IMG/VR virus record: IMGVR_UViG_2808606651_000002
Strand: one strand, 5' to 3'
DNA from: an uncultured virus (IMG/VR IMGVR_UViG_2808606651_000002)
Taxonomy: Duplodnaviria > Heunggongvirae > Uroviricota > Caudoviricetes
DNA length: 20,000 bases
The first letter of the stretch is position 1; every line of letters starts with the position of its first letter. Below are positions 1,989-19,653 of the stretch, piece after piece. The position numbers and the translations under genes are program-made. Below the pieces are notes generated by a model. The model worked only from the letters and a program-made list of their open reading frames with translations. It was not told the DNA's origin and did no database searches.

Positions 1989-2024
1989 AAAAACAGGATA
2001 ACTATTTCTAGCTATCCTGTTTTT
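1989..2024 (-). terminator. Intrinsic terminator-like hairpin overlapping the stop codon of the ConG-like gene
   Basis: Minus strand AAAAACAGGATAGCTA-GAAA-TAGTTATCCTGTTTTT: 16-bp stem (one G-U), GAAA tetraloop, U-run. Confidence 0.75.
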
Positions 2025-4008
2025 TTATTTCTGTTGCTTCTCTTGATAATTTTTCACTAAATTCAGCTTGTGATGTACGAACTGAATTATTAACCTCATT
2101 TTTTATACTATTTCTTTGTTCTGTTCTATGATTAATCTGTTCAGATGAATTATTAACTTGTCTATTACTTACATCAACTTGACTATTAGACAAATCACCA
2201 TTTCCTGAATAATCAAATTGATTATTAAATCTTTCTTTATTAATATTACTTTCTAAAGAACTATTATTATAACGACTAAAATTATCTGAACTTCTTTCTA
2301 AATTATCATTTCTCATAAAATTACTTTCTGAACGCTCTAAACTATTTGAACTATTACTTAAATAATCAGATTGACTTGTTCTATAATTATCATAATCATA
2401 ATTATTTCCTCTTGTCATATTTAAACTTTGATTATATTCTGTTTGTGGTGTGCGAACTGAATCGTTTATAACTTCTTTATTCATTATTCTTTGTTCTTCA
2501 TCTAAAACAGGCTGATTATTTAAAGAATTACCATTTACATTATTCTGATTATTACTTGTAACTTCTTGTGGTGTACGTTCTACTTCTTCATAATTATAAC
2601 GTTCTCGAACTTGTAGTGAATCTAGATTTTCTTCTGGTGCTTTATTTTCTTGATATGAATTTCCTTGTTTATTCATATCTTGATTTTCGCCACTCGATCC
2701 GCTGTTAAATATCGAACCATTAAATCTAGGTTTTTTCATCATTCCGTTAAGTGTTGACATTCCTATATTTCCTACTCCACCTGCTGAAAGAGTTGCTAAA
2801 ATCTGTTTTCTATTCTTCCACATTGCCACTAAAGATACTACAAGTAATATTGTTGATGTTGTATATATAGTTACTGGCGAAGCATTTGAACTCTCCATTA
2901 TTTTTCTAGTTAAATTCATCACTAATGATACCAATAATATTACTAACCCCAACATTGCCTTTATTGCATATAAACCAAATAAATTTTTAAATACACTTAT
3001 ATAACTCATTCTCATAAATGGTAAATAAGAAGCTAATAATGTAAATGGTACTATTAATATATAAAAAAGTATCTGTATCTGAATTATAAAATTAAAAAAC
3101 GCTATTACATTAAAAGGTAACATCAATATTAAATTCATAATTACAGATAAAAAAGATACTGTAAGTTTATGAGTAACTACTTCATCTGAAATATAATAAT
3201 TTTGTTTATCACTTAATTTATCATCTAACTTTTTCTTATCAGCAAATTCATATTTTTCTAAATACTCTTGTTCCTTTTCATTATCTCTTTTTACTAACAA
3301 ACTATCAATCCTACTTTTTCCATCTACACCTTTGAAATTAGGATTACTATTTACTTTTTCTTTATCTAACTCATTAAAATTTAAAAGTAAAAATGGTTGT
3401 TCTACTGCTTGCTTAAAAAACTTCTCCCTTAATACATCTTTACCATCTAATTTTTCATCACTTCCTAATAATTTATCTCCACTCGTCGCTATAGTCGACT
3501 GAACATCATTAGAAAACTCATTAGCACTATTAATTATACTGCTTGCATTAGTAATCCATAAAGTACATATCCCAATTAAAAGTACTAATTGAAACATATC
3601 TTTTACTCCTCGATGTGCAGATACCATATAACGCATACCTGCGACTACCGCACCAATAAAAAATAAAAGTACTCCATATTTACCAAATACATTATTGTAT
3701 ATAGTTGAAGATGTATCACCTAATAAATTTACAATACTATTTAATGCATCACTATCGTACAACATTTTTAAGAAAAAATCTGTAATACTCGCAACTACTT
3801 TAGCTATACTAAAAAAGAAATTAGCTAAATAATTCATCATTACAGAAGTATTTGCCCAAGTCCAATTACTATCATGCATATAACTTTTATATTGTTCTAA
3901 ACTATTATATTTATCATCAATACTTGAAGCATATACTACACTTATTGTAGAAAAAACAAATAATAATAAACTTATCATTATATATATTATCTTCCTCTTT
4001 TTCGTCAT
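2008..4008 (-). CDS. Polytopic T4SS membrane protein, ConG/TcpH/Orf15 (VirB6-like), with Asn/Ser-rich C-terminal tail
   Basis: Signal-like N-terminus, several TM clusters, F..AVEQPFLLLNF motif typical of the family, long polar tail; position in the conjugation module. Confidence 0.85.
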   Translation of the reverse strand: MTKKRKIIYIMISLLLFVFSTISVVYASSIDDKYNSLEQYKSYMHDSNWTWANTSVMMNYLANFFFSIAKVVASITDFFLKMLYDSDALNSIVNLLGDTSSTIYNNVFGKYGVLLFFIGAVVAGMRYMVSAHRGVKDMFQLVLLIGICTLWITNASSIINSANEFSNDVQSTIATSGDKLLGSDEKLDGKDVLREKFFKQAVEQPFLLLNFNELDKEKVNSNPNFKGVDGKSRIDSLLVKRDNEKEQEYLEKYEFADKKKLDDKLSDKQNYYISDEVVTHKLTVSFLSVIMNLILMLPFNVIAFFNFIIQIQILFYILIVPFTLLASYLPFMRMSYISVFKNLFGLYAIKAMLGLVILLVSLVMNLTRKIMESSNASPVTIYTTSTILLVVSLVAMWKNRKQILATLSAGGVGNIGMSTLNGMMKKPRFNGSIFNSGSSGENQDMNKQGNSYQENKAPEENLDSLQVRERYNYEEVERTPQEVTSNNQNNVNGNSLNNQPVLDEEQRIMNKEVINDSVRTPQTEYNQSLNMTRGNNYDYDNYRTSQSDYLSNSSNSLERSESNFMRNDNLERSSDNFSRYNNSSLESNINKERFNNQFDYSGNGDLSNSQVDVSNRQVNNSSEQINHRTEQRNSIKNEVNNSVRTSQAEFSEKLSREATEIKKQDS

Positions 4009-4028
4009 TTCTAACTCCTTTCATAAAT

Positions 4029-4057
4029 AAAAAAAGATAACATTTTTTGTTATCTTT
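4029..4057 (-). terminator. Intrinsic terminator after the lipoprotein gene
   Basis: AAAGATAACA (4033-4042) and TGTTATCTTT (4048-4057) form a perfect inverted repeat ending in a U-run on the minus strand. Confidence 0.7.
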
Positions 4058-4067
4058 CTTTAATAAT

Positions 4068-4439
4068 TTATTTAATATTTATCTCTTCATAAACAGGTTT
4101 AGATACAATTTCAGAAATTCGCTTATTCCAACCAGAACCAAACTCATCAACTTTACCATCTGTATCTCTTATAAAGTAAAATTCATAATTCTCACCTTTT
4201 TTTTCTTGAATAGCATATAATGTCTTTTTTCCTTGAACCGCACCTGCATTTACATCTACATTTTCATAAACCTTAATATTAACATTTTCTCTTTTGATTT
4301 GTTTAGATTCATCAACACCTTTATTTTCATAACTTATAACTTTATTTATATCACTATCATATTTTTTACTTGAACTTGAACAACCTACTATACTAATACT
4401 TAATATAATAGTTGCTAATATCATTAACAATTTTTTCAT
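4068..4439 (-). CDS. Lipoprotein, YddJ/DUF4467 cystatin-like; putative entry-exclusion protein
   Basis: Lipobox IVGC followed by KKYDSDINKVISYE...KRENVNIKVYEN, the pattern recalled for ICE-encoded DUF4467 lipoproteins; adjacent to the ConG homologue. Confidence 0.72.
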   Translation of the reverse strand: MKKLLMILATIILSISIVGCSSSSKKYDSDINKVISYENKGVDESKQIKRENVNIKVYENVDVNAGAVQGKKTLYAIQEKKGENYEFYFIRDTDGKVDEFGSGWNKRISEIVSKPVYEEINIK

Positions 4440-4471
4440 TATAAAAACACTCCTAATCTTTTTATAATGCC

Positions 4472-4500
4472 ATTATATCAATTATTAATGATATTTTCAA
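4472..4500 (-). promoter_or_regulatory. Near-consensus sigma-A promoter for the lipoprotein gene
   Basis: TTGAAA (4500-4495), 17-bp spacer, TATAAT (4477-4472), with TGn extension; AGGAG RBS downstream. Confidence 0.8.
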
Positions 4501-4502
4501 GT

Positions 4503-4694
4503 CTATACATTTTTATTTAAATGTTCCTTTATCCATATTATATAAAATACTAAAGTTAAAGCTAATACTAATAAAAATAATAAATTTATTAATTCTACAT
4601 TATATATATTATTAATTCTTTTTATTTCTAATACTGCACATATTAAAAATAAAAAATAACATATACTTACTAAATACAATTTTAAATTTTTCAT
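4503..4694 (-). CDS. Small 2-TM membrane protein
   Basis: 63 aa, two hydrophobic helices, starts 1 bp after the upstream stop. Confidence 0.7.
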   Translation of the reverse strand: MKNLKLYLVSICYFLFLICAVLEIKRINNIYNVELINLLFLLVLALTLVFYIIWIKEHLNKNV

Positions 4695-4695
4695 A

Positions 4696-4911
4696 TTATC
4701 TACCTTTATATTTTCGATATTTTTTAAAAATACTAAAAACTAATAAAATATAAATAAAAAACATTACTAATAATAAAACAAATAATAATGATAATCCTAT
4801 TCCATTTCCTGCAATATCATATACTATTTTTATTCTTGATATTCCTACCATTGTTGATAAAATATAAAATAAAGTTATTATTGTCAAAGCTATTTTTCCA
4901 TCTTTACTCAC
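4696..4911 (-). CDS. Small 2-TM membrane protein (GTG start)
   Basis: 71 aa, two hydrophobic helices and a basic tail, starts 1 bp after the coupling-protein stop, GAGGG RBS. Confidence 0.7.
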   Translation of the reverse strand: MSKDGKIALTIITLFYILSTMVGISRIKIVYDIAGNGIGLSLLFVLLLVMFFIYILLVFSIFKKYRKYKGR

Positions 4912-4912
4912 T

Positions 4913-6301
4913 TTACAACCCTCTTTCTTGTATCAATTCCATTATTTCCTGACCTACTAAATCACCATTTACTATATATGGTGATAAAAATACTTTAGGT
5001 CTATCAACCATTTCTTTTATTTGATAATATCCCGTTCCTTTTAATCCTATTTCTTTATATGCTGTATTTGTTTCGCCAAATATCATTTTATATCCGTCAT
5101 TTGACAAACTTCCTAACGCTATCCTTAATCCTAATTGATCTCTTACTTTTCCGTCGAGAACATCAGTATCAGGTCTTTGTGTTGCAAAAATTACAAATAC
5201 TCCTGCTTGTCGACCTTTTACAACAATGTTAGTAAGTTTTGACATTACTTCTTTTTTTTCTTTATTATCTAATACAGAAACAAAAGCTAATAATTCATCA
5301 AATATTAAAAAATATGGTTTAATTCCATAAGCTACATAATCCTCACCAAAATTATCTCCTGTAGATAACATTTCTTTATATCTATTATCCATTTCTAAAG
5401 TTACATCATCTAATAAATTTATTACATCTTCTTTTTCATATACTACTAAATTCTTTTTAGATACATAACCTAATTTTGTTAAATCGGATATTTTAGGGTC
5501 GATTATATTTAAATAATAACCTTTTTTTAATATTTCTTTTATCAAATAAAATATTAAATAAGATTTCCCTGTTCCTGTTCCACCAACTATTAAAGCGTGA
5601 GGACTTTTTCTAAACTCCCATATTACACTTTTCATTAATTTTAATTTATTATCTTCTACATTATCATCACTAAAATTTAATCTATCTTTTAATGAAAATT
5701 TAGATAATGTATATATTATAAATTCATCTATTACTTGTTTATCTTTCAATTCTATTTTAAATGTATATTCTAATTTTGTTTCTAACTCTAAAAATTCTTT
5801 TTGAAATTTTGAACCATCTAATCTAATATATATTTGAATTTCATTTTTATTTTGCTTTATGTAAAACTTCGGAAAATATAAATCTTTGTAACTTTCCCTG
5901 CTTTTCACCAAACCTTTTACATTAAAAATATCTTCTAATCCTTTGCTTACACTTGTATTAGACACTAATTGAGGTTTTATAAAATATCCTGACGTGAATA
6001 TTAATTCAGCTAGCTTTTGAATATTTCTTACTCGCTCTAATAAATTATTCAACAAAATGTAAGATACTAATATTACTGGTACTGATATTCCTATTGTTAA
6101 TAACAATATTTTCAACCAATCTTCTTTTAAATTAGATATATCTATATAGTAATTATAAATCACTACAGATAATACCAGCAGGAAAATTATTGTTATTAAT
6201 TCTCCTACTGTTCTTTGATATATCTTTTCATCATTTTTATCTATTTTATATGCTAAAGGTCTTTTAAAATATTTTATAAATAATTTTTCTTTCTTATTCA
6301 T
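4913..6301 (-). CDS. Type IV coupling protein, FtsK/SpoIIIE type (TcpA/ConQ/Orf21-like)
   Basis: Two N-terminal TMs, PHALIVGGTGTGKS Walker A, LIFDE Walker B, KGRQAG and TQRPD motifs. Confidence 0.93.
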   Translation of the reverse strand: MNKKEKLFIKYFKRPLAYKIDKNDEKIYQRTVGELITIIFLLVLSVVIYNYYIDISNLKEDWLKILLLTIGISVPVILVSYILLNNLLERVRNIQKLAELIFTSGYFIKPQLVSNTSVSKGLEDIFNVKGLVKSRESYKDLYFPKFYIKQNKNEIQIYIRLDGSKFQKEFLELETKLEYTFKIELKDKQVIDEFIIYTLSKFSLKDRLNFSDDNVEDNKLKLMKSVIWEFRKSPHALIVGGTGTGKSYLIFYLIKEILKKGYYLNIIDPKISDLTKLGYVSKKNLVVYEKEDVINLLDDVTLEMDNRYKEMLSTGDNFGEDYVAYGIKPYFLIFDELLAFVSVLDNKEKKEVMSKLTNIVVKGRQAGVFVIFATQRPDTDVLDGKVRDQLGLRIALGSLSNDGYKMIFGETNTAYKEIGLKGTGYYQIKEMVDRPKVFLSPYIVNGDLVGQEIMELIQERGL

Positions 6302-6303
6302 AA

Positions 6304-8793
6304 CTAAGCATACCTTTCTTCTGCATAAGCTACTTCTGATTTTTCTACAGTTTTAAATGCTTGTGTCCACTCACTAAATAATGAATGTACGCTTAATTTT
6401 GCTACTCGACCGTATATATCTTTAAATAAACATTGACCTTTTACCATATTTGATAAAATATCCATATTTACACTGTTATTTTCTAATCCTAAATGTTCTA
6501 ATATGTGTACTCTTTCTTGTTCTTCGTCAAATGCAAATATACTACCATAGTTACCTGCTATATTATTTTCATCTTTAATATCAAATACTGATTGAGTAAT
6601 AAATACTAAAGCATTATTCATACTTCTTCCTATACGTTCTAACGATTTTTTAGTTGCTCGTCCTATTTTACTTGTATTAAATGCCCATGCCTCATCTACA
6701 TAAATTATTGTTTCTTCATCTGGATTACTTCCAAATAAAGACATAAATTTTCCTAATACTTGCATTACTACTAAACTTTTTTCTTGTGAATCCGTATATG
6801 TATCTTTACTATCTTTAGCATCTGGTAAATCTAAACCATATACTTGTAATATTGTACTTTTATTATTTAATGATAATGTATTATTACTACCATCAAAGAA
6901 TAATAATTTTAACATTCCATTTTGTGTTTTTTCGTATAAATTGTCTCCTGCTTCAACTATTTCTACATCTTCATTTTCTTGCAATTCTTTTATAATATGC
7001 AAACTTCCAACTGTTTCACCTTGTTGTTTTAAATCTACTATTTTTCTAATTGCTTTTAAAAGTGCTGTTTCTATCTTTCTATCATTTGTTAAGTCTACCA
7101 CTTCATCAAACATTGCTTTTGTTAATTCTACTGCTTCTGCACCATCTAAAAATGTTACTGGGTCTAAAATTCCCCAATTTTCTTTTTTAGTATAATCTAT
7201 TGTTAAATATTTTATACTGCTTAAAAGTTTTGCAAATAACGGATATAATCTATTATTTTCTTCACTTTCAGTTATTCTACTAAACCACTTTTGCATTTCA
7301 CTTTTTGGGTCAAAATACAATGTTTTTACATCTAACATTAAACTTTGAATATATATTAATTTCGCTAAAAATGATTTTCCTTTTCCTGTTTTTCCTGTAA
7401 TTGCTATATGTGGTGAATCTGTTTTTGTTCCTGCAATACCTTTATTTGCTATCATAGGGTGAAATAACACTATATCCCTCGAAGCATGAATATTATCTTC
7501 TAATAATTTTGCCGATTTTGTAAATCTATCAATTCTTCCAAGATAAAATCCTATTTCCATTCCTAAACTTTGACCTACTCCAAATAATACTTCCGATAGT
7601 GCTTCTGTTGTAGTTGTTTGAATCCAATTTCTATACATTCCAAGTTCGCTACCTTGTAATAAAAGATAAAATAATTGTAATTGATCCGCAACTGGAGCTA
7701 TTACATTTATTTTTTGTCTTTTTAATTCTTTTTTCACAAGTCGAACTTGTCTTAATAATTCTTCTTTTCTAGTATTCGATAATGTTATCACTAATAACCA
7801 TTCAACAAAATTTTTAGATTGTGAATGTTCATTATCTATCCTATCCATTAAAAAATTATTTCTCATACTTTCATCTTTTAATTTTTCATTACTCATAAAT
7901 TCTTCTTTTACTTCATGAGCCTTTGAACGTATTTTATGTGATAATTTCATATCAAAAGTAGTTTTATCTACAGGCTTAAATTTTAAATCAACTTCTACAG
8001 GGTAACCTTGCGATTGTAAATTTTCAAAAATATGTAAATTATTCATTAAATAATCTGTACTTTCTAACACTAAATAACTTTTATAAATGGTTGTATCTTC
8101 TGTATCAATTTTTATAAGTCTTTTTTCTGTAGTATCTAATTCTGCATTTGCTATTTGATTACTACCTCTCAAAATACTTTCTTCATCTACATTATGATAC
8201 ACATTACCTAAAAAGTTATATCTTATTAAATAATTCAATTCATCTTCTGTACATCTTCTTATATCAAGTACCCTTAAACTATTAAATACACTTGCTTCTG
8301 CTTGTGTAAATTTATAAAAATACTCGTCTGTTACTTCTATTTCAAACCCTAATGAACTTGCTAATTTATCAGTAACACCACTTACAGCATTTTTAACTGT
8401 ATCTTTTATATCTTCCATTTCTGAATATATTCTATCTATCCTTACTCCGATATAAAATTCATATTTTGTTATTTGTCCTAATTCTCTTTCTAAAAGATTA
8501 ATAGCTTCTTTTCCATAATATTCAGCTACATCTTTATATCTAACATCATAATCATTAGCCAAAATATTAAGTCTTTCATCTAAATTCATATTTTTAGGTA
8601 ACATTTTTAAATGAATATCCTTAAATTTTATTACATCATCTAACAAACTTGTAAATCTACTTTTATATTCTTGTTTTTCATTTGTATTTGCCCTTGAAAT
8701 TATTTCAGGACTTATTTTATAATATGAATATATACTACCTGACTTTGTCAATAGTATATTTTGATATGTCCTTTTTAAAGGAAATTTAAACAT
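6304..8793 (-). CDS. VirB4-like conjugative ATPase (ConE/TcpF/Orf16-like)
   Basis: 829 aa, SPHIAITGKTGKGKS Walker A, FDPKSE, YVDEAW Walker B, RIGRSMNN..ITQS, GQCLFKDIYGR. Confidence 0.93.
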   Translation of the reverse strand: MFKFPLKRTYQNILLTKSGSIYSYYKISPEIISRANTNEKQEYKSRFTSLLDDVIKFKDIHLKMLPKNMNLDERLNILANDYDVRYKDVAEYYGKEAINLLERELGQITKYEFYIGVRIDRIYSEMEDIKDTVKNAVSGVTDKLASSLGFEIEVTDEYFYKFTQAEASVFNSLRVLDIRRCTEDELNYLIRYNFLGNVYHNVDEESILRGSNQIANAELDTTEKRLIKIDTEDTTIYKSYLVLESTDYLMNNLHIFENLQSQGYPVEVDLKFKPVDKTTFDMKLSHKIRSKAHEVKEEFMSNEKLKDESMRNNFLMDRIDNEHSQSKNFVEWLLVITLSNTRKEELLRQVRLVKKELKRQKINVIAPVADQLQLFYLLLQGSELGMYRNWIQTTTTEALSEVLFGVGQSLGMEIGFYLGRIDRFTKSAKLLEDNIHASRDIVLFHPMIANKGIAGTKTDSPHIAITGKTGKGKSFLAKLIYIQSLMLDVKTLYFDPKSEMQKWFSRITESEENNRLYPLFAKLLSSIKYLTIDYTKKENWGILDPVTFLDGAEAVELTKAMFDEVVDLTNDRKIETALLKAIRKIVDLKQQGETVGSLHIIKELQENEDVEIVEAGDNLYEKTQNGMLKLLFFDGSNNTLSLNNKSTILQVYGLDLPDAKDSKDTYTDSQEKSLVVMQVLGKFMSLFGSNPDEETIIYVDEAWAFNTSKIGRATKKSLERIGRSMNNALVFITQSVFDIKDENNIAGNYGSIFAFDEEQERVHILEHLGLENNSVNMDILSNMVKGQCLFKDIYGRVAKLSVHSLFSEWTQAFKTVEKSEVAYAEERYA

Positions 8794-8853
8794 TTATTTT
8801 CTCCTCTCTTTTGTAATAAAATATATTTCTCACGAAAAAAATTTTATTTTCAT

Positions 8854-8913
8854 AAAAAAAAGACCCTGATATATTATTCTAAACTTATATTTAAAATAAA
8901 ATATCTAGGGTCT
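8854..8913 (-). terminator. Long terminator-like hairpin between the TcpE-like and VirB4 genes
   Basis: AGACCCT (8861-8867) pairs with AGGGTCT (8907-8913), extended by GATAT/ATATC and an imperfect inner stem; U-run follows on the minus strand. Confidence 0.65.
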
Positions 8914-8915
8914 AT

Positions 8916-9278
8916 TTAATTAAATTTTATATGCTTGCTTCTATATTTAATTTCTTCATCAAAACTATATTTTTTGTTTTTCATATTAATTCCTATTTTC
9001 CATTTCAAATAATCATATAAATATATCACCATGCTTTTACCATCAACATTTATATTAATTATTGCCCATGTTATAAAAATAGGAAAACCATAATAAGCAT
9101 ATCCCATTACTTTTACCATTGGAATTATTCTATCCAATATGTAAAAAAGAAAAGCTATTACAAAAAAAATAGCGACTGTTACGACCCTAATTCCATTCCT
9201 TGATATTGTATATCCTTTTATTTGCCGAATTTTCATAGGTTCTTTTAATGCCTTTGTATAATTGTATAAACTTTTCAT
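8916..9278 (-). CDS. TcpE/ConD-family conjugal transfer membrane protein (VirB3-like)
   Basis: YNYTKALKEPMKIRQIKG N-terminus, two TMs, DGK..YLYD motif; directly upstream of VirB4. Confidence 0.85.
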   Translation of the reverse strand: MKSLYNYTKALKEPMKIRQIKGYTISRNGIRVVTVAIFFVIAFLFYILDRIIPMVKVMGYAYYGFPIFITWAIININVDGKSMVIYLYDYLKWKIGINMKNKKYSFDEEIKYRSKHIKFN

Positions 9279-9281
9279 AAT

Positions 9282-9521
9282 CTAATTGAAAAATAGTTTA
9301 AAGAATCCAGAAATACCTTTTAATACTAATTCTGTTTCTATTACTACTAAATATACAAAGCCACCAGTAACTACTGTTCCTATCATTCCTTTCAAGCCTA
9401 TTTTAAACATAGCAACAATAGCTAATGCAATTATTACCATTATTAAAATTGGGCCTGCAATTCTCCTAAACTCTGATAGTGCAGAATCTCCATTAATTGC
9501 CATTAACATTAAATCATTCAT
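9282..9521 (-). CDS. TcpD/ConC-like small 2-TM conjugation protein
   Basis: 79 aa, two hydrophobic helices, positioned between the TcpC-like and TcpE-like genes. Confidence 0.65.
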   Translation of the reverse strand: MNDLMLMAINGDSALSEFRRIAGPILIMVIIALAIVAMFKIGLKGMIGTVVTGGFVYLVVIETELVLKGISGFFKLFFN

Positions 9522-9539
9522 TTTATTTACCTCTCTTTT

Positions 9540-10990: not shown

Positions 10991-11034
10991 CTTCTATCCT
11001 ACCCCTTTCATTTTCTAATGAATATTTATCAAAC

Positions 11035-11184: not shown

Positions 11185-11195
11185 AATTTTATTTA

Positions 11196-11429
11196 CTAAC
11201 CTATACACTCTAATAACTCTCTTTGATATTTATTTATTACCATTTTACAATCATCTTCATTATGAAAATATCCTAACTCACTAACTAAATTTTTATTTGA
11301 TTTTACTAATATCATATCTACTTTATTACTTTGAACTACTATATAATATCTATATTCTTTTTCTGAACTTTTTAAATTTAACTTTTTACTTATTTGTTTT
11401 ACGTGTTCTAATATGTTCATTCTTTTCAA
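11196..11429 (-). CDS. Hypothetical protein (paralog of 11433-11723)
   Basis: 77 aa, AGGAG RBS overlapping the upstream stop; YY...LGYFHNEDDC...KYQ motif. Confidence 0.75.
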   Translation of the reverse strand: MKRMNILEHVKQISKKLNLKSSEKEYRYYIVVQSNKVDMILVKSNKNLVSELGYFHNEDDCKMVINKYQRELLECIG

Positions 11430-11432
11430 CTC

Positions 11433-11723
11433 CTAGTCCCAATACCCATATTCATTTAATTCTAATATTTTCTTTTGATACTTTTCTCTTGCTTTTTGAC
11501 AATCTCCCAAATTATTAAAATATCCTAATAAAACAAATGTATTTGTTTGTTTATTTTCTATTTCTATTGATACTGTATTGTTTAATATTGCTAAATAATA
11601 TTTACTGCTTTCTTCATATTTATGTTTTTCATTGCATTTATTTTTATATTCTTTAAATTCTTTTATAAATTGCTCAAAATCATTTAATGTAGGTCTTTTT
11701 TTTCTCAAATTGTTCACTTCCAT
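11433..11723 (-). CDS. Hypothetical protein (paralog of 11196-11429)
   Basis: 96 aa; YY...LGYFNNLGDC...KYQ motif. Confidence 0.72.
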   Translation of the reverse strand: MEVNNLRKKRPTLNDFEQFIKEFKEYKNKCNEKHKYEESSKYYLAILNNTVSIEIENKQTNTFVLLGYFNNLGDCQKAREKYQKKILELNEYGYWD

Positions 11724-11756
11724 TTATACTTTTTCTTTTTCTTTTTATCACTCCTC

Positions 11757-11820
11757 AAATTAAATATATCTAAAATAAAGATAGTCAGTTAAACCAACTA
11801 CCTTTATTTATATTTAATTT
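11757..11820 (-). terminator. Terminator-like hairpin after the adhesin gene
   Basis: Minus strand AAATAAAGGTAGTTGG...CTGACTATCTTTATTT, whose mismatches are G-U pairs on the minus strand only; outer AAATTAAATAT/ATATTTAATTT arms. Confidence 0.7.
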
Positions 11821-14805
11821 TTATTTCACTTTTCTTTTTATTCCAAAGAAACCTAATACAAAAGTTAGTAAAGTCATTAAAATATAACCTAACATATTAT
11901 TATATCCTTGTGAATTTTCTTTTACTGCTGATGTTTTAGGTAATGTTTTTTCTTTTGGCTTCTCTTTTTCTTTTGGTTGTTCTGGTTTTGGTGGCTGTTC
12001 TTTTTTAGGTACATTATTAACTACTACCTCACTTTCATAACCATTACCAAAATCAATTTGATATGCTTTATTTTCATATTTACCACCATTAGAATTAAAA
12101 TCTTCTTTTACTTTCATAGGTGATGTTATATGAATACTATTACCTTTTACTACATATTTTTCAAAAAATTCTTCTGGATTATCAACTGTAAATAATTGAT
12201 AAGCACCTTTAGGAGTTATCCCTGCTTTTTTAAGCATTTCTTGTACTTCTTTAGGTGATTTTTCTAAACTTTCATAAGATTTTACTGTAATTCCTTTTAC
12301 TTCATCATTATTAGAATCTACAATTTTTACATCTTTTTCTAATAATTCTAATGCTTCTTCTGGATAATCATCTACATAATAAAATCCTTTTTTAATATCT
12401 TCTTTTGTCGCTTTAATTCCTTTATATTGGTCTAAATCCCATAATAATTTATAATAATTAATTGAACCTCTTTCAACTTGTTTCCCATCAATTAAAACTC
12501 CATCTTTATTATAATTATGTTTTTCAGGTTTGATCAAATTATTATTAGGATTATCTTCATCATTAGGTTTACCTGGTGTACTTACCTTAACAATATTAGA
12601 ATATACTTCATAATCATTATTAATTGTTAAACTAAAATTATTTTTATAAGTTGCACCATCATTTATTACTGTACCTACCAATGTTGGAATAGGTGCTAAA
12701 ATAGATTTTGTTAAATCTTTATTCAACTGTTCTAATAATTTTGCTGTCGCTGATAAAGTAACTGTATGAGTATCTTTATTATAAGATAAATCATAATCTT
12801 TACTTTCTTCTTTTGTTTTTTCAACATCTAAAATATAGCCTTTAGGTAAACTATCTTTAATTACATACTTGTCAATTTCTTTTCTTCCTGCAGGTAATTC
12901 TTTTGTTCTTAATTCCCATTTAACAGTGCTTAATTTTGATACATACTGATTATTGATATCTTGATTTTCAACATTTTTTACTTGTTTTTCAATATTAGGT
13001 ACTACATTTACTTTATAATAATTATATTTAACAGTAACTACATCTAAAGTTTTTGGAACTTCTTTATAAACTGGGTCATCTGGTTTTGGTGGTTCTACTT
13101 TTAATTCTTCTAAAGTTGGTTTATCTGGTAATGGTTTTTCATTTTCATAAACTGGTTCTTTAGGTGGTTGATTATAAACAAAACTTTTTAATTCTGAACT
13201 CTTACCAAATAAATTAAAAGCTATAGCATATAAATCACCTTGTTTATGAGTGTTATAAAATTTTCTAGCTTGATTATCATAATCTCTTCCTAATTGGTCT
13301 CTTACTAAACTTTCCTTATCTTTATCATAAGAATAATGTGTATAAGTCAGACTACTTCCCATTCCTACTGTTAAAAATGTTCCCTCTGGGGTAGATTCAA
13401 AATTCTTATATGAAGCACTTAAATTAGAATACATAACACCGTTTTTTTCTCTTAAATTAGATGAATGAGGTGCTACAGTTCCTACATTTTTATCAAAATC
13501 AACTCTTGAACCTTGACCCCAATCGACATCACCTACTACTGTTCCATATCCTATTTTTAATGGATTTCCATTATCATCTACAAAATCAAATTTTAATTTA
13601 AAAGTTTTCATATTTTGATAATCAAAATAAAAACCTCCACCAGTTGCATAACTTACACTAAACTCTTGATTAATTGTAGGCTTACCATTTTTAACTGTAC
13701 CCATTGGCTCACCTACCTCTACAGTTACAATAGCATGTACTTTTCTTCCGTCAAGAGTTTCACCCATATTAGTTATTTTAAATTTATCTCCTGTTTTTAC
13801 ATTAGAAAATTTAACCCATTTACCTGATTCTGTATTAGGTAAACCATAATCTTTATCCAATACTAAACTATCAGTTATTTTCTCTAATTGTGTATCTGGA
13901 TTCCAATCTAAACCATTTTTTAAAGTTACTGTATTAGTCTTTTCTGTATCATTTACAACTAATATATCTTTATAATATGCTAAACTTCCTTTACCTGCTT
14001 CATTAAATGTACCATAAACTGAAATTCCATCTTTTGAAAATAATAAAGGTTTACCTTTAATTAAAGTATCTTTTTCTTTTTCTTGTTCTTCACGCATTTT
14101 TTTATAAATTGCTAAATCACGTTCATATTTTTCTTTTTTCTCTTGATTGCGTTTTACTATATCTAAATTTTCTTTTGTGATTCTATCAACTTCATTATTA
14201 TAATCAGTTGTTTTCTTTTCATTTTCTGATTTTATTTCTTCGTTTTTATTTTTTACTTCTTCTAACTTTTTATTATATTCTGATAAAGCTTTTTCATAAG
14301 CTATTTTTTTATCTTCATTTTCTTTTGTTACTTTTGAAATTTCTTCTTGATTTTTTTGTTTATCTTTTAAATAAGTTTCAGTTTTATTACTTATTTCTTC
14401 GGCTTTCTTCTTATATTCTTCTTGTACTTCTTTTGTTACTTTTGATAATTCTTCAGTAGATTTAACTGTACCTTTATCTACTATTTCTGATTTTTCTACT
14501 TTTACTCCACCATTAACAGCTTTTTCTACTGCCTTTTCTAATTCTGGAGATTTTAAATTTACTTCTACAGAACCTTGACTTTGATTCACCTTACCTTGTG
14601 AATTATTTGCTTCTGGGGTAGATTCAGGTTGTTTAGTAACTGAATTTGTTGCAGGATTATCTGTTTTATCTACATCACTAGCAAAGGCTTCATTATCTGT
14701 TGCTAATCCTATTGCTACTGCTGTTGCTAATCCTAATCCTACTGATACCAAATTTTTATACTTTTTACTCTTTCTTAATGTATATTTTTCTTCTGGTTTT
14801 ATCAT
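11821..14805 (-). CDS. Antigen I/II-family (SpaP/SspB/PrgB-like) cell-wall-anchored adhesin, putative aggregation protein
   Basis: YSIRK-like signal, DNPATN, helical A region, V domain, Pro-rich P region, C domains (LPAGR, NDGATYKNNF, WDLDQYK, GFYYVDDYPEEAL, AYQIDFGNGY), LPKTS plus TM plus basic tail. Confidence 0.92.
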   Translation of the reverse strand: MIKPEEKYTLRKSKKYKNLVSVGLGLATAVAIGLATDNEAFASDVDKTDNPATNSVTKQPESTPEANNSQGKVNQSQGSVEVNLKSPELEKAVEKAVNGGVKVEKSEIVDKGTVKSTEELSKVTKEVQEEYKKKAEEISNKTETYLKDKQKNQEEISKVTKENEDKKIAYEKALSEYNKKLEEVKNKNEEIKSENEKKTTDYNNEVDRITKENLDIVKRNQEKKEKYERDLAIYKKMREEQEKEKDTLIKGKPLLFSKDGISVYGTFNEAGKGSLAYYKDILVVNDTEKTNTVTLKNGLDWNPDTQLEKITDSLVLDKDYGLPNTESGKWVKFSNVKTGDKFKITNMGETLDGRKVHAIVTVEVGEPMGTVKNGKPTINQEFSVSYATGGGFYFDYQNMKTFKLKFDFVDDNGNPLKIGYGTVVGDVDWGQGSRVDFDKNVGTVAPHSSNLREKNGVMYSNLSASYKNFESTPEGTFLTVGMGSSLTYTHYSYDKDKESLVRDQLGRDYDNQARKFYNTHKQGDLYAIAFNLFGKSSELKSFVYNQPPKEPVYENEKPLPDKPTLEELKVEPPKPDDPVYKEVPKTLDVVTVKYNYYKVNVVPNIEKQVKNVENQDINNQYVSKLSTVKWELRTKELPAGRKEIDKYVIKDSLPKGYILDVEKTKEESKDYDLSYNKDTHTVTLSATAKLLEQLNKDLTKSILAPIPTLVGTVINDGATYKNNFSLTINNDYEVYSNIVKVSTPGKPNDEDNPNNNLIKPEKHNYNKDGVLIDGKQVERGSINYYKLLWDLDQYKGIKATKEDIKKGFYYVDDYPEEALELLEKDVKIVDSNNDEVKGITVKSYESLEKSPKEVQEMLKKAGITPKGAYQLFTVDNPEEFFEKYVVKGNSIHITSPMKVKEDFNSNGGKYENKAYQIDFGNGYESEVVVNNVPKKEQPPKPEQPKEKEKPKEKTLPKTSAVKENSQGYNNMLGYILMTLLTFVLGFFGIKRKVK
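14677..14789. repeat. 113-bp direct repeat, copy A (signal-peptide coding); copy B at 17184-17296
   Basis: Manual alignment: 107/113 identical, all 6 differences synonymous. Confidence 0.92.
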
Positions 14806-14851
14806 ACTATATCCTTTCTTTTTTTTAATTGATCACTTTAGTGAATAATTT

Positions 14852-14881
14852 AAAAAAAGGGTAAAATTTTCTCTTACCCTT
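14852..14881 (-). terminator. Intrinsic terminator between the surface-exclusion and adhesin genes
   Basis: Minus strand AAGGGTAAGA-GAAAA-TTTTACCCTT-TTTTT. Confidence 0.75.
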
Positions 14882-14894
14882 GTTCTAAAAAATA

Positions 14895-17306
14895 CTAAAT
14901 TCTATTTCTTCTATATAGTCCAAATATTAAAATCAACAATAGAACACCTAAAAAACTTGATAAAATTGTTGTTGCTTCTCCTGTTTTAGCAAGAGAACCT
15001 GAACTTAAAACATTATTATTTTCTAAATTACCTTTATTTTTTAATTCTTTTGCTAATTTTTCTAACTCTAATGATTTTTGTTGTTTATTATATTCTGATA
15101 ACAACAACGTATATTTATCTTGTAATTCTTTTTCTTGAACTTTTAATTGTTCTAATTTAGTTTTCTCTACTAATAATTTTGCTTCTAACATTTCTTGTTG
15201 TTTTGTTGTTTCTTCTAACAATGCAGGAGCATTTTGTAATTTATTTAAATAAACTTTTGTTTCCTCTAATTTATTTTCTAAATTACCTATTACTTGCTGT
15301 TGCTCTTTAATTTCTTGTTGTTTTACTTTTATATCTGCTTCTAATCTATTAAAATCAAAAACAACATTATCATAAACAACTTGTTTTTCCTGCTGTTGTT
15401 CTTTAATTTCTTTTAATTCTTTTTCTGCTACTTCTAATGCTTGTTGTTTTACTTTTATATCTGCACTTAAATTATCATAATTTATTTGTGCTTGTTCCTG
15501 AATTTCAGTATTTTTCTCTAATTCTTTTTGTGATTCTTTTAAATTTAATTCTGCTTGTTGAGTTAATTCTTTTGTTGCTAATACATTATTTAAATTATTT
15601 GCAACTTCTTTCAAAGTATTTTGAGTAACACTTAATACACTTTTTGCATTTTCTTTTGCTTGTTGTTTCTGAATATTATTATTATCTTTTATATCATAAT
15701 CAGATTTTGCTGTATCTAATACTGCTCTTAATTGTTCTGGTGTACGAGTTTGAGGTATTTCTTTTACATCAAAATTATTTTTAGTTGAATTTCTAACTTC
15801 TTCTTCACTTACAGTAATAAAATGAACTCCTGTACCTTGTGAAACAGAAAAATCAACACCTAAATAATCTTTTTGAGGATTATTATAATTAATCCCTGCA
15901 ATACTTTGAGCGTGCAACCATTCTGTACCATTTAACATAAATTTTAAAACAGCATTATACAATAACTCTTTTAATGCACCTTTTGAAAGCTTTTTATCAG
16001 TATTTGATATACCATAAAGATTTTCATAAAACTGACCTTGACTCATTCCATACTCACTAGCTACTTTTGATATGCCAGCTTCATTATGACCTTTATATAC
16101 ACCAAAATTACTATTAACATATTCATCAGCTACTTTTTTAGCAAAATCTATAGCTGAACTTGTTACTACAGTATTTTTAGTACCGAATTGTTTTCTAATT
16201 TGATTAACTAAATCACTTGCAAATAATGATAATTCTTTTCTTACTTCATCTGATAAATTATTTACATCTAACAATGTATCATCATCATTTTTATTTTTCT
16301 TATAAGTATTTAATTTTAATAATTTTTCATTTTCTGATTTTAATACTTCTTTAGCTTTATCTCTTGTAGATTCAGGTAAACTATAATCCATATAAGTTTT
16401 TAAAGCCTGCACATATTCATCACTTAAAACAATATTATTAATACTATCTACATCATTTTGAGCCTTAACTAGCTCTTTTTTAGCTTCTTCTAATGCTTTT
16501 TGAGTTGCTTCTGCCTCTTGTGTTTTTACTAATAAATCTTGTTTTTGTTCTGATACTTGATTTTCTAATTTATCTTTTTCAGAAGTTAAATTATCAATTT
16601 TATCTTGTCTTTCTTTATCAAGCTTTTTAGCTTCTTCTAATGCTTTTTCTTTATTTACAACATTTTCTTTTGCTAAAGCTAATTTTTTATTAGCTTCTTC
16701 TAATGCTTTAATTACTTTATCTGCATTAGTTCCAGATAATATATCTTTAGCATTTTGTAATTTAGATTCTGCTTCTTGTGTTTTTAATTTAGATTGTTCT
16801 AATATTTTTTTAGCTTTTTCTACTTTCGATAATGCTTCTTGTTTTTCCTGCTGTTTTGTTGCTTCTTGACCTTTTAAAACTGATAATTTTTCATTTTCTG
16901 ATTCTATTTCTTCGTTTTTATTTTTTATATCTTTATTTGTTCTTTCGATATTTTCTGGTGTAGATTCTTTTGAAAGTTTCTCTAATTCAGTTTTTTCTTT
17001 CGTTACTTTTGATAATTCTTTATTAATACTATCTACTATACCTGATTGTTCTTTTACTTGACCTTTTACATTATCTAAATTTGATTTTGCTGTAGATACT
17101 TCTTCTTTAGTTACTACTTTAGATTCAGTTTTTTCAACATTTTGTTTAATACTCTCAACTGTAGAATTATTTACTACTTCATTACTAGCAAAGGCTTCAT
17201 TGTCTGTTGCTAGTCCTATTGCTACTGCTGTTGCTAATCCTAATCCTACCGATACCAAGTTTTTATATTTTTTGCTCTTTCTTAATGTATATTTTTGTGT
17301 ACTCAT
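14895..17306 (-). CDS. Sec10/PrgA-like surface-exclusion protein (coiled-coil stalk with CAP-like head), sortase anchored
   Basis: Long coiled coils flank ELSLFASDLVNQIRKQFG...GHNEAGI...GQFYENL...FMLNGTEWLHAQSIAG; LAKTG plus TM plus RRNR. Confidence 0.88.
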   Translation of the reverse strand: MSTQKYTLRKSKKYKNLVSVGLGLATAVAIGLATDNEAFASNEVVNNSTVESIKQNVEKTESKVVTKEEVSTAKSNLDNVKGQVKEQSGIVDSINKELSKVTKEKTELEKLSKESTPENIERTNKDIKNKNEEIESENEKLSVLKGQEATKQQEKQEALSKVEKAKKILEQSKLKTQEAESKLQNAKDILSGTNADKVIKALEEANKKLALAKENVVNKEKALEEAKKLDKERQDKIDNLTSEKDKLENQVSEQKQDLLVKTQEAEATQKALEEAKKELVKAQNDVDSINNIVLSDEYVQALKTYMDYSLPESTRDKAKEVLKSENEKLLKLNTYKKNKNDDDTLLDVNNLSDEVRKELSLFASDLVNQIRKQFGTKNTVVTSSAIDFAKKVADEYVNSNFGVYKGHNEAGISKVASEYGMSQGQFYENLYGISNTDKKLSKGALKELLYNAVLKFMLNGTEWLHAQSIAGINYNNPQKDYLGVDFSVSQGTGVHFITVSEEEVRNSTKNNFDVKEIPQTRTPEQLRAVLDTAKSDYDIKDNNNIQKQQAKENAKSVLSVTQNTLKEVANNLNNVLATKELTQQAELNLKESQKELEKNTEIQEQAQINYDNLSADIKVKQQALEVAEKELKEIKEQQQEKQVVYDNVVFDFNRLEADIKVKQQEIKEQQQVIGNLENKLEETKVYLNKLQNAPALLEETTKQQEMLEAKLLVEKTKLEQLKVQEKELQDKYTLLLSEYNKQQKSLELEKLAKELKNKGNLENNNVLSSGSLAKTGEATTILSSFLGVLLLILIFGLYRRNRI
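14945..14993. repeat. 49-bp direct repeat, copy A (sortase-anchor coding); copy B at 17395-17443
   Basis: 48/49 identical; encodes LAKTGEATTILSS(F/L)LG. Confidence 0.92.
17184..17296. repeat. 113-bp direct repeat, copy B
   Basis: Matches 14677-14789; encodes KYTLRKSKKYKNLVSVGLGLATAVAIGLATDNEAFAS. Confidence 0.92.
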
Positions 17307-17350
17307 AATATTCTTTTCTAACTCCTATCTTTTTTCTATAAAATTTTTTA

Positions 17351-18028
17351 TTATCTAACTTTTTTTAATAATCCTGCTAATACTAATCCTAATGCACCTA
17401 AAAGACTTGATAAAATTGTTGTTGCTTCTCCTGTTTTAGCAAGTTCTTTTACTTCTTTAATTTCTGCTAATGTATTAGCATTTTGCAATTTTTGTCCTAA
17501 AACTTGTTTTTGTTCTGGTGTCAATTTATCTGTATTTTCAATAACACCTTTTAATTCATCTTTATCTTTAGTAATATCTACTACATTATTAAATTCTTTT
17601 AATGTTTTAGTATTATCTTTCTTATTTTCAAGAATATCTTTCTTATCTTCTTCAGCTTTCTTTTCTTCTTCTGGTTTTAATTCAGGTTTATTTTCTTTTT
17701 CTTTCTCTTTTTCCTTTTCTACTGCATCTTTTTCTTTTGGTTTTTCAGTTTCCTTTTCTTTGTCTTTTTCTTCTGGTTTTGGTTTATCATCAACTACTGG
17801 TGGTTGTTCTGGTGTAGTTGGTTCTGTTGGTTTAACCTCATCTTTAGGCTTTTCACCTTCTTCTTTTGGTTGTTCTGGTACTACTGGTTTATCATCAACT
17901 ACTGGTGGTTGTACATCTTCTACTGGTTTATTTACTACTTCATCATCAGAAGCCTTAACTACTCCTGTTCCACCTAACACTGCACTTGCGATAACTGTTG
18001 TTAAAATAATTTTTGTTGTTTTATTCAT
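17351..18028 (-). CDS. Pro/Glu/Lys-rich sortase-anchored surface protein (PrgC-like)
   Basis: Likely start MNKTTK at 18028 (GTGAGGA RBS) rather than 18082; signal peptide, QPPVVDDKP twice, KE-rich stalk, LAKTG anchor. Confidence 0.82.
   Translation of the reverse strand: MNKTTKIILTTVIASAVLGGTGVVKASDDEVVNKPVEDVQPPVVDDKPVVPEQPKEEGEKPKDEVKPTEPTTPEQPPVVDDKPKPEEKDKEKETEKPKEKDAVEKEKEKEKENKPELKPEEEKKAEEDKKDILENKKDNTKTLKEFNNVVDITKDKDELKGVIENTDKLTPEQKQVLGQKLQNANTLAEIKEVKELAKTGEATTILSSLLGALGLVLAGLLKKVR
17395..17443. repeat. 49-bp direct repeat, copy B
   Basis: Matches 14945-14993. Confidence 0.92.
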
Positions 18029-18105
18029 AATTGTTGTCCTCACTTTTTCTTTTTTTTTTATTTTTGCAAAAATAAAAAACATTAATATAATGTACCAATG
18101 CTTTT

Positions 18106-19359
18106 TTAATATAAATTTTCTATAACTTTTTGTTTTTTGTTTATGTAATCTTCTATTAACTTTTCCTTTTCCTTTTCATTAATTTTTGCGAAAGATACTA
18201 TTTCGCCTATCGTATCATAATCTTTATTTAACAATCCTTTTTCTTTAGCTTCTTGATCAGCTTGCAGAACTAACGCTAAAGAAGTAGAGGCTTGTGTTAT
18301 TAAAAATGATTTTTTTCTTTCTATTGTTTTTTGTTTCTTAACATTTTCAAACTTAAATTTCATTGAACCTTGAATCAACTGTTCCCATTTATCCCAATAT
18401 TTTAATTTTTCCTCTGTTTCAAATACTGAAAAATAACTATTTAATACCGATACTGATTTTTCTTTTAATCGTTTTGACTTTGAAATTTGCTTAAAAAATG
18501 AATTTGCTTTATCATCTCTCATTACTATTTCAAACCTGTTAAAGTTTAAATCAATTTCTTCATTTTCTTGTTGTAATTGTATTCCTTTTTTATAAAAACG
18601 TAAAAACAAATTACTTTTCTTACTTCCACAATAAATAGTCATTCCTTTTGAAACTCCATTTTTTGTTTCATGCATAAAATTAAAACTCTGAAATTTTGTA
18701 ACAATTAACTCATTATGTTCACGTATTTTTTTTTCTAACTCTTCTAGTTCAAATAAAGGTGAAAAATCATCAATAGCAATATCTAACCGAGTAATTTTAC
18801 CTTTATAAGCTATTACTGTATCAAAGAAATCAAAATAATCTTCTTCCTTTTCAAATAATAATTCATCTAAAAGCCTGCAACCCTCACCAGTTATTTGTAA
18901 ATTACAATGATTATAACTTTCATCACCAAAAAATAAATTAATTCCTTTATATTCTAAACAAAACTTATAATTATAAAATCTTTTTTCAGAATATACTATG
19001 TCATTTTCACTTATTCTTAATAATGTAGAAAACATATTAATAACATCTCTTTTTTCAAAATAACTTTTTCTCATTGCATAAAATGTACATTGAAACCAAT
19101 CCAAACCTATAAAAAGATTATCATTCACTTTATCAGTTATATCTACTACTTTAGATTTTACTGTTTTTTTAGTTTTTTCATATCTTTTTTTTAGTATTAA
19201 TTCTACAAACTCTAATCTATCAACAAAAATTATATTATTTTCTTTCTTAGTTGATAGATTAGACCTATCAATTAATTTTCTAAGTCCGATTTTTGAAATT
19301 TTATAATCTATAAAACTACAAAAATCATCACATTCAGAAATTGTAATATAATTTTTCAT
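18106..19359 (-). CDS. MOBT relaxase / Rep_trans replication initiation family (NicK/Orf20-like)
   Basis: LDWFQCTF, GEGCR, ITRLDIAIDD, GMTIYCGSKKS..FLRFYKK and RFEIVMRDDKA motifs; lies next to oriT. Confidence 0.93.
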   Translation of the reverse strand: MKNYITISECDDFCSFIDYKISKIGLRKLIDRSNLSTKKENNIIFVDRLEFVELILKKRYEKTKKTVKSKVVDITDKVNDNLFIGLDWFQCTFYAMRKSYFEKRDVINMFSTLLRISENDIVYSEKRFYNYKFCLEYKGINLFFGDESYNHCNLQITGEGCRLLDELLFEKEEDYFDFFDTVIAYKGKITRLDIAIDDFSPLFELEELEKKIREHNELIVTKFQSFNFMHETKNGVSKGMTIYCGSKKSNLFLRFYKKGIQLQQENEEIDLNFNRFEIVMRDDKANSFFKQISKSKRLKEKSVSVLNSYFSVFETEEKLKYWDKWEQLIQGSMKFKFENVKKQKTIERKKSFLITQASTSLALVLQADQEAKEKGLLNKDYDTIGEIVSFAKINEKEKEKLIEDYINKKQKVIENLY

Positions 19360-19434
19360 AAAGTATAATCCTTTTAAAGTAAAAATCGCTTTATATCAAC
19401 GTTTTAATCATTCACCATTTATACTTTTTTTATT

Positions 19435-19483
19435 TTAACCCCCCTTATTAGTTAGTTGGGGGTTAAGCGTGCCAAAGGCACGC
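19435..19483 (-). other. oriT / nic site of MOBT type
   Basis: Minus strand GCGTGCC-TTT-GGCACGC then TTAACCCCCAACTAACTAATAAGGGGGGTTAA. Same layout as the Tn916/ICEBs1 oriT (C-run, CTAA, G-run hairpin), directly upstream of the relaxase. Confidence 0.85.
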
Positions 19484-19580
19484 CTGCCTAGTAGCTTTTG
19501 CTTGTTTCGTCCTTGTTGCGTGCGGGCTTATCGCCCGTACTCACGTACTTACTCGCAAGCTACTTTTCGGCAGTTTTTTT
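19484..19580. other. GC-rich branched stem-loop next to oriT (single-strand origin or structured RNA)
   Basis: CTGCC/GGCAG, AGTAGCTT/AAGCTACT and GTGCGGGC/GCCCGTAC nested inverted repeats in otherwise AT-rich DNA. Confidence 0.55.
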
Positions 19581-19608
19581 ATTTTTTACCAACTAATAAT
19601 AATTTGTT

Positions 19609-19653
19609 AAATAAGAAGTTATATTGTTGTTTTAACTATATAACCTCTTATTT
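19609..19653 (-). terminator. 16-bp hairpin directly after the DUF961 gene
   Basis: Minus strand AAATAAGAGGTTATAT / ATATAACTTCTTATTT, fully paired with one G-U; short U tail. Confidence 0.55.

Follow-up and report, generated by a model that had tools for sequence, protein, structure and literature searches.

Conserved terminator-type hairpins and a candidate leader RNA in the transfer region of a MOBT-type element from Gemella

We analysed a stretch of 20,000 nucleotides filed as an uncultured virus (IMG/VR IMGVR_UViG_2808606651_000002; hereafter the window), which corresponds to G000:C1:1346390-1366389 of a Gemella genome and is enclosed in a 28.2-kb element with the features of a MOBT-type integrative and conjugative element (ICE). 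All long reading frames of the window except one lie on the minus strand, and the transfer genes appear to form one long operon, driven from a leader and punctuated by five hairpins (hp2 to hp6). By their predicted structure, position and conservation these five hairpins are genuine sense-strand intrinsic-terminator elements, at which we infer that transcription actually terminates. It is also well supported, as judged from the predicted hairpins and promoters, that the genes behind hp2, hp3, hp4 and hp6, for which no own promoter was recognised except before a lipoprotein gene, need read-through. VirB4, the coupling protein, the ConG-like protein, two regulators and a cell-wall hydrolase would then be expressed only by polymerases that pass the hairpins. 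As to how these polymerases pass, we tentatively favour an RNA-based antitermination system encoded by the element itself, of the kind of Tn916 canT, HK022 put or EAR.

Hairpins of the transfer region

All six minus-strand hairpins described in a first-pass annotation of the sequence were found in place. Their predicted RNA folding energies, from hp1 to hp6, were -17.6, -15.7, -22.4, -23.9, -13.6 and -20.7 kcal/mol, with z-scores of -7.69, -4.83, -6.95, -6.65, -6.14 and -9.04, and for each of them none of 200 dinucleotide shuffles was as stable. The first, hp1 (19609-19653), is an AT-rich stem of 17 pairs that directly follows the stop codon of the DUF961/HelP-like first gene and separates this gene from an oriT-like stretch. 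Hp2 (14852-14881) has 10 pairs, three of them GC, and a U-tract, and its stem ends 51 nt before the start codon of an adhesin gene. Hp3 (11757-11820) is long and AT-rich, contains three G-U pairs, is followed by UUUUAGAU and ends 52 nt before the next start codon. Hp4 (8854-8913), predicted to be the strongest barrier, consists of 23 pairs on a GACCC/GGGUC base with a run of eight U, and lies 67 nt before the VirB4 start. Hp5 (4029-4057), a symmetric AT-rich stem with a U-tract, closes the unit of a lipoprotein gene 21 nt before the ConG-like gene. Hp6 (1989-2024) overlaps the end of the ConG-like gene; between its stem and the start of the next gene, the first of a pair for XRE-type regulators, about 10-22 nt are left. 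The annotation had placed core transfer genes directly behind the hairpins, with about 20 bp left before the next start after the last two; the positions of VirB4 behind hp4 and of the ConG-like gene behind hp5, and the distances after hp5 and hp6, agree with this.

The number of U residues in the 8 nt past the stem was 5, 5, 7, 7 and 5 for hp2 to hp6, and 2 for hp1. The combination of hairpin and U-tract that defines an intrinsic terminator was found for hp2 to hp6 (dG -10.8 to -23.1). Since hp1 has no U-tract, we do not regard it as terminator-like, and the earlier description of all six as such stands for the other five. A second statement, that G-U pairs or U-tails of several hairpins work only in the operon direction, holds for five of six, this time without hp5, which is symmetric: hp1 to hp4 and hp6 each contain 1-3 G-U pairs, and their operon strand folds better than the opposite one by 3.3-8.7 kcal/mol.

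Scans of the whole window were less discriminating. A simple terminator scan caught only hp2 of the six and returned 5 sites, against 2.3 +/- 1.7 in shuffled sequences. With a lenient rule the minus strand gave 9 sites and the plus strand 11, where five shuffles gave 0-5, so that raw counts do not single out the operon strand. In the lenient scan hp3, hp4 and hp6 formed on the opposite strand also; in the case of hp6 there are A and T runs on the flanks, hence its score on the plus strand. It is distinguished instead by the compactness, intergenic position and conservation of these hairpins.

Relatives were collected by a scan of genome contigs, a metagenome scan and whole-genome searches (12 target sequences), and for each hairpin only those with both flanking anchors were counted; G014, which carries a complete copy of the element, is not among them. 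A terminator-type hairpin was kept in 7/7 relatives for hp2, 7/7 for hp3, 10/11 for hp4, 5/5 for hp5 and 5/5 for hp6, most of these relatives being more than 90% identical and therefore not independent. The informative ones are L016 and L017 (about 82% identical) and L018 (about 78%). At the hp2 junction L016 and L017 carry two unrelated classic terminators instead of hp2, and in their hp3 the stem shows compensating changes; at the hp5 junction L018 has a different hairpin followed by a U-tract. In the most distant relative, G034 (DNA identity 64-73%), the strong hairpin at the hp3 junction is a different one. At the position of hp1, L018 and G034 have a hairpin of different sequence, while hp1 itself is kept in G014. 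The check for conserved terminator positions in related ICEs, proposed with the first-pass annotation, thus came out in its favour: hp2 to hp6 are kept, some with altered sequence. A separate observation concerns the space between hp4 and the ribosome-binding site of VirB4, where a block of about 40 nt (AAAATAAAATTTTTTTCGTnAGAAAnATATTTTATTACA; 8794-8860) is conserved in L018 above the flanking genes; it does not have the look of a sigma-A promoter.

We calibrated the hairpins against gene junctions of the host, using a crude map of 1632 open reading frames, one scan rule and intergenic gaps only. Outside the element 254 of 310 convergent gene ends had a hairpin of -8 kcal/mol or better (median -16.3), and hp4 is stronger than 94% of these 254 host terminators. 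The closeness of the hairpins to the next start codon is not ordinary. Stem-to-start distances were 51, 52, 67, 21 and 10 nt for hp2 to hp6, and 38, 214, 28 and 84 nt for the hairpins further downstream in the element. Of these 9 distances, 6 were 55 nt or less. In the host, where the comparison was limited to hairpins of -10 or better, this was so at 71 of 358 junctions, and the median distance was 114 nt. A binomial calculation by hand gives about 0.003 for this difference, with the reservation that junctions of one element are not independent.

Read-through and the leader region

Intergenic promoters were scored as matches to the 12 hexamer bases, plus one for a TG before the -10, with an additional filter on the -10 and a cut-off of 10. 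The best promoter-like site on the operon strand of the window, TTGAAA-17-TGaTATAAT (4500-4472, minus strand; 11/12 hexamer matches plus TG), precedes the lipoprotein gene (4068-4439, minus strand). It is kept in L010-L013, L020, L018 and L016 while the surrounding spacer diverges, and the lipoprotein gene would therefore form a nested transcription unit that ends at hp5. From the left end of the element to position 4500 no intergenic promoter reached the cut-off. Weaker intergenic matches of 9/12 were seen at 11792-11763 (on hp3), 14828-14801 and 19610-19581, and several in the leader. Overall the window holds fewer promoter-like sites than its shuffles (121 vs 150.2 +/- 12.2). The earlier statement that little or no promoter room is left behind the hairpins is confirmed by the short gaps and by the lack of an intergenic site at the cut-off upstream of 4500, and it is for these two reasons that read-through appears to be needed. 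The further proposal, of a mechanism comparable to known processive systems, stands as regards read-through; a dedicated processive antitermination system does not follow from it, given the host-like hairpin density, the weak hairpins and the internal promoter.

The region in front of the first gene lies outside the window. This leader of about 650 nt holds no convincing reading frame; the left end of the element is at L001:654. In the direction of transcription it contains two hairpins with U-runs, T_L1 and T_L2 (about L001:515-553 and 600-646), then a structured element of about 120 nt (L001:272-393, minus strand), a candidate cis-acting RNA, and then, at about 85 nt from the first gene, a third hairpin, the predicted terminator T_L3 (L001:88-121, minus strand). 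The block of about 120 nt is conserved far above the neighbouring genes. A covariance model built from four leader copies retrieved a fifth from G034, where it likewise lies shortly before the first transfer gene, so that the structured element was present in 5/5 related elements. In these, 95.7% of cells were paired and 4 pairs had changed on both sides, and the G-U pairs fit the operon strand. The covariation score of 0.246 was reached by 1 of 500 shuffles, and slid controls gave 0-1 pairs changed on both sides and scores of 0.017-0.108; the reservation is that this covariation comes from 5 sequences of about 3-4 lineages in a model-fitted alignment. A terminator-type hairpin between the structured element and the first gene is found in G000, L018 and G034. 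All three leader hairpins are kept, with changes, in a small transposon of G005, and L018 and G034 have a counterpart of the third at the corresponding position. A 24-aa frame within the structured element was considered and discarded as not kept, since G005 and L018 lack its ATG and the frame is shifted by an indel.

The antitermination that we favour would work as follows. The structured element, which lies shortly before the first conserved terminator, would be the first part to be transcribed and would presumably act as an RNA on the polymerase, making it resistant to the terminators downstream. Transcripts of other origin, whether spurious, read in from outside or started at the internal lipoprotein promoter, would continue to end at the hairpins. 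Such a system has precedents, and the idea of antitermination has already been published for Tn916 (canT, 2024) and pLS20 (conAn). In Tn916, itself a MOBT ICE, the cis-acting RNA canT, a region of 452 nt, is described as needed to pass the terminators T1-T3 (PMC11658703). Internal terminators have also been called "a good indication" of a processive antitermination system (PMC8955417).

The present element has in common with Tn916 a MOBT relaxase, a related oriT motif, terminators predicted both within the transfer genes and close to the left end, where in the canT type they insulate the DNA-processing genes, and regulators and a recombinase at the far end. It differs in having more predicted hairpins (5 in the window, 9 in the element as a whole and a further 3 in the leader) and in its recombinase, an ISL3-family DDE transposase instead of a tyrosine integrase. 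A coupling of expression to circularisation would be a further, possible likeness. The right end of the element reads ...TTGACAAAGAACC outward and the left end GGGTGTATAAT... inward, and these ends (L002:7480-7492, L001:643-654) contain an outward TTGACA at 7 nt from the right end and, starting 3 nt from the left end, an inward TG-TATAAT that is directly followed by a hairpin with a U-run. Joining of the ends would leave a spacer of 12 nt plus any coupling bases, and about 4-6 coupling bases would be required for a promoter. At the homologous place L018 carries TTGACA-17-TATAAT without interruption, which makes it plausible that a promoter arises at the junction of the circular form. The most far-reaching version, in which a protein-independent antiterminator RNA, transcribed efficiently only from the promoter assembled on circularisation, carries RNA polymerase through a dozen terminators over 28 kb to the transposase gene, seems to us improbable. 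If true, it would couple expression of the transfer genes and the transposase to excision.

The likeness to pLS20 is of another kind. In each case a long conjugation operon of the Gram-positive kind contains numerous internal terminators, predicted ones in our case (PMC8191782), and in both an internal promoter is followed by a terminator, the constitutive P29 and Ter30 in pLS20 (PMC8191782) and the site at 4500-4472 and hp5 here. Both also have a long leader in which an imperfect long stem-loop is followed by a terminator before the first gene (PMC8191782, PMC13401043); as regards the zipper-type attenuator cATT of pLS20, which is also characterised by upstream sequence complementary to the terminator, the comparison covers these two parts. 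Unlike in pLS20, whose conAn system is bipartite, with the conAn2 RNA directly downstream of conAn1, no ConAn1 was found here and the first gene is DUF961/HelP-like.

The first-pass annotation recognised no ConAn1 or NusG-like gene in the window, and neither there nor anywhere in the 1.76-Mb genome was a ConAn1 or a NusG paralog found. PF17362 gave no ConAn1 match in the genome; this negative is weak because the model also misses the ConAn1 of pLS20 itself, in a six-frame search as well as by direct hmmscan, and PF17362 is thus a poor screen for conAn systems. Gene 28 of pLS20 (172 aa), taken as ConAn1 after PMC8191782, gave no match in the genome when its product p28 was used as query. A profile built from p28 and 10 relatives reached a best E-value of 1.6 among 15,191 open frames, against 1.5e-91 for the pLS20 control, and small, divergent forms of ConAn1 could be missed by this profile. 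The only NusG gene of the genome lies at 959,601-959,924, far from the element, and no second copy of the kind that acts in LoaP/RfaH-type antitermination was found.

Weighing of the explanations

Several observations weigh against antitermination by the leader, in addition to the narrow basis of its covariation. In G034, hp2 and hp4 are absent, the gap between TcpE and VirB4 being 21 nt. The hairpins T_L1 and T_L2 lie upstream of the structured element and thus beyond its help. The structured element occurs also in a transposon of about 5 kb in G005 that has no transfer genes; it is therefore part of the transposon backbone and may serve another role. There is no sequence likeness to canT: in a blastn search with the Tn925 canT region the element gave 34.0 bits at best, and 20 shuffles gave 24.0-34.0. 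Rfam searches were negative for window, leader and distal part alike. The hairpin pattern is also similar in the prgQ operon of pCF10, with hairpins at 5 of 23 junctions in the same scan, and we know of no established processive system in pCF10 besides the IRS1 switch of its leader.

The strongest alternative is passive, leaky termination without a dedicated factor, and we consider it plausible, if equally tentative. Partial terminators would then set a step-down gradient, with abundant surface exclusion and adhesin proteins first and few proteins of the type IV secretion system (T4SS) later, and the hairpins would insulate the toxic membrane components from read-in transcription and from the lipoprotein promoter, enough polymerases slipping by. 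Hairpin density in the element is ordinary for the host: of the co-directional junctions, 388 of 1294 (30%) carry a hairpin in the host, 5 of 15 in the window and 9 of 22 in the whole element. Moreover, hp2 and hp5 rank in the weakest 6% of host terminators, hp3 belongs to the weakest 18% and hp6 reaches the 32nd percentile, and hp2, hp3, hp5 and hp6 could simply be leaky. Because three of the five hairpins are weak by host standards, plain leaky termination comes close in probability to an RNA-based system. Leakiness would also fit the lack of known antitermination factors in the genome and element searches and the finding that one predicted internal terminator of Inc18 plasmids is non-functional (PMC8955417).

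The comparison with pCF10 adds to this. Its prgQ operon has the same order of a PrgA-type exclusion protein, an antigen I/II-type adhesin and then T4SS genes, with terminator-type hairpins after prgA (-14.4) and prgB (-16.4) in the same scan that match those after the PrgA-like and PrgB-like genes here, and PF17362 had no match in pCF10. No counterpart of the leader control of pCF10, as described in PMC7117660 (IRS1, Anti-Q, PrgX), was recognised in the present element.

Against leakiness stands the position of the very strong hp4 directly before the essential genes for VirB4 and the coupling protein. In addition, behind a succession of T_L3, hp2, hp3 and hp4 only a small remnant of transcript would be expected. 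Finally, both systems with several functional internal terminators that have been studied, pLS20 and Tn916, proved processive (PMC8191782, PMC11658703). The strength of hp4, the serial barriers, these two experimental precedents and the well-placed conserved leader element are the reasons why we put an RNA-based system before leakiness.

A second alternative, which we consider unlikely, is that there is no single operon. Weak or non-consensus promoters at the hairpins, or in the conserved blocks behind them, would restart transcription, and the hairpins would be the ordinary ends of small transcription units. The conserved, near-consensus internal promoter at 4500-4472 speaks for this. The distal part of the element, outside the window, also contains two identical perfect TTGACA-17-TATAAT promoters and has terminators of its own, and the conserved block between hp4 and VirB4 and the 9/12 site over hp3 could be further starting points. 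However, the next start codons follow the stems at distances of only 10-67 nt, no intergenic site upstream of 4500 reaches the cut-off, promoter-like sites are rarer than in shuffles, and the site overlapping hp3 is lost in L016 and L017.

Least probable is a post-transcriptional or DNA-level role, in which the hairpins set the half-lives of mRNA segments as 3'-end stabilisers or RNase processing sites, or fold in the transferred single strand, because, although hp1 has no U-tract and adjoins oriT and hp3, hp4 and hp6 form on the other strand also, five of the six hairpins have U-tails, the G-U pairs favour the mRNA strand, and the unrelated replacements in relatives are again a hairpin with a U-tract.

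Gene content and mobility of the element

The host genome is a single contig of 1.76 Mb with 30.6% G+C, and G+C in the window is 21-29%. The element extends over G000:C1 about 1338869-1367043 (L002:7480 to L001:654). In operon sense the genes of the window encode a DUF961/HelP-like protein, a Rep_trans relaxase, three wall-anchored surface proteins, small proteins, a single-stranded DNA-binding protein (SSB), TcpC, a TcpD-like protein, TcpE, VirB4, an FtsK-type coupling ATPase, two small membrane proteins, the lipoprotein, the ConG-like protein, the two XRE regulators and an M23/lysozyme hydrolase, whose gene extends beyond the window. The T4SS set thus includes VirB4, the coupling ATPase, TcpC, TcpE, the ConG-like protein and the hydrolase.

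The following assignments all concern the minus strand. The first gene of the transfer region, at the window edge (19662-20000; 112 aa), matches DUF961 below the cut-off (E 0.0051), and the likeness of its product to Tn925 YdcP is confined to the N-terminus. The relaxase (18106-19359) is of the MOBT type (Rep_trans E 1.6e-36, Rol_Rep_N E 7.1e-12) and shares 21% identity over 329 aa with Tn925 MobT (E 7e-16). Among the three wall-anchored surface proteins are a PrgA/SEC10-type surface exclusion protein with a wall anchor (14895-17306; TIGR04320, E 1.7e-77) and an antigen I/II adhesin of the PrgB/SspB-like type (11821-14805; AgI_II_C2 E 2.9e-39, and NF033804 E 1.1e-189, below the cut-off of that model). 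The VirB4-type ATPase occupies 6304-8793 (AAA_10, E 7.1e-98), and the ConG/VirB6-like membrane protein of the CD3337/EF1877 family 2008-4008 (NF046089, E 4.8e-60). The GC-rich structured stretch upstream of the relaxase gene (19436-19575) is read as a putative oriT; it ends in CTTAACCCCC..CTAAC..GGGGGGTTA, a motif identical in G014, L018 and G034 and related to a stretch upstream of mobT in Tn925/Tn916. A megablast of the whole window against a plasmid collection gave no match, and the best relatives in a protein search of plasmids with VirB4 were only about 40% identical. As a side observation, the first genes behind hp3 encode two adjacent small proteins (96 and 77 aa; 11196-11723) that share the motif GYF(N/H)N..DC..(A/I)..KYQ, match no family and are kept in relatives.

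With a relaxase and an adjacent predicted oriT, T4SS genes of the Firmicute type, defined ends and occurrence at different sites, the element has the predicted attributes of a MOBT-type ICE. The claim of the first-pass annotation that this is a MOBT ICE is thereby upheld, through the Rep_trans relaxase, the Tn916-like oriT and the defined ends. Perfect target duplications of 8 bp were found at two sites, GAAATTTA in G000 and TTAAATTT in G014, where a complete element lies at another location with TTAAATTT on both sides; in G020 the site is empty and the two flanks are joined with an 8-bp overlap. The element of G014 lies inside the loop of a terminator-like palindrome of the host (AAAAAGACACAG TTAAATTT AAACTGTGTCTTTTT; L022:1283-1303, L026:160-190), which may be a clue to the target preference of the transposase.

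The last gene of the element encodes an ISL3-family transposase (NF033550, 234.4 bits vs a cut-off of 180), which is the only recombinase seen among the family-matched genes of the element; neither a tyrosine nor a serine recombinase was found among them. The ICE would thus appear to move by means of an ISL3-family DDE transposase. Among the papers listed by full-text literature searches, none described an ICE mobilised by ISL3-type transposition. As to the circle junctions of ISL3 elements, PMC6350997 deals with IS2-like elements and gives no help. The small transposon of G005 (L027, G005:C7:680877-685673) shares its ends, transposase, leader hairpins and structured leader element with the ICE and lacks transfer genes, which suggests that the transfer module was inserted into, or lost from, a small ISL3-type transposon; its flanks match at only 5 of 8 bases.

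A further side observation concerns the two perfect distal promoters (L002:11369-11397 and 9470-9498, minus strand; L018:1-30 and 741-770), whose spacer holds the 12-bp palindrome ACGTAATTACGT. Behind every copy stands a hairpin with a loop that keeps AAGCAACTACC and a stem that varies from copy to copy. This repeated cassette looks like a common operator and 5' RNA element placed before small genes.

The arrangement described here bears on how a long and toxic transfer operon can be kept silent against stray transcription and yet be expressed on demand. Were read-through actively controlled, the element would represent a third, unrelated solution to this problem after conAn of pLS20 and canT of Tn916, and would support the suspicion of Wirachman and Grossman (2024; PMC11658703) that termination-antitermination systems are widespread in ICEs. 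The analysis provides a defined candidate RNA and a set of predicted terminators that can be tested with simple reporters. It also provides, in Gemella, a commensal of the human mouth and airways, what appears to be a clear case of an ISL3-family DDE transposase that mobilises an ICE.

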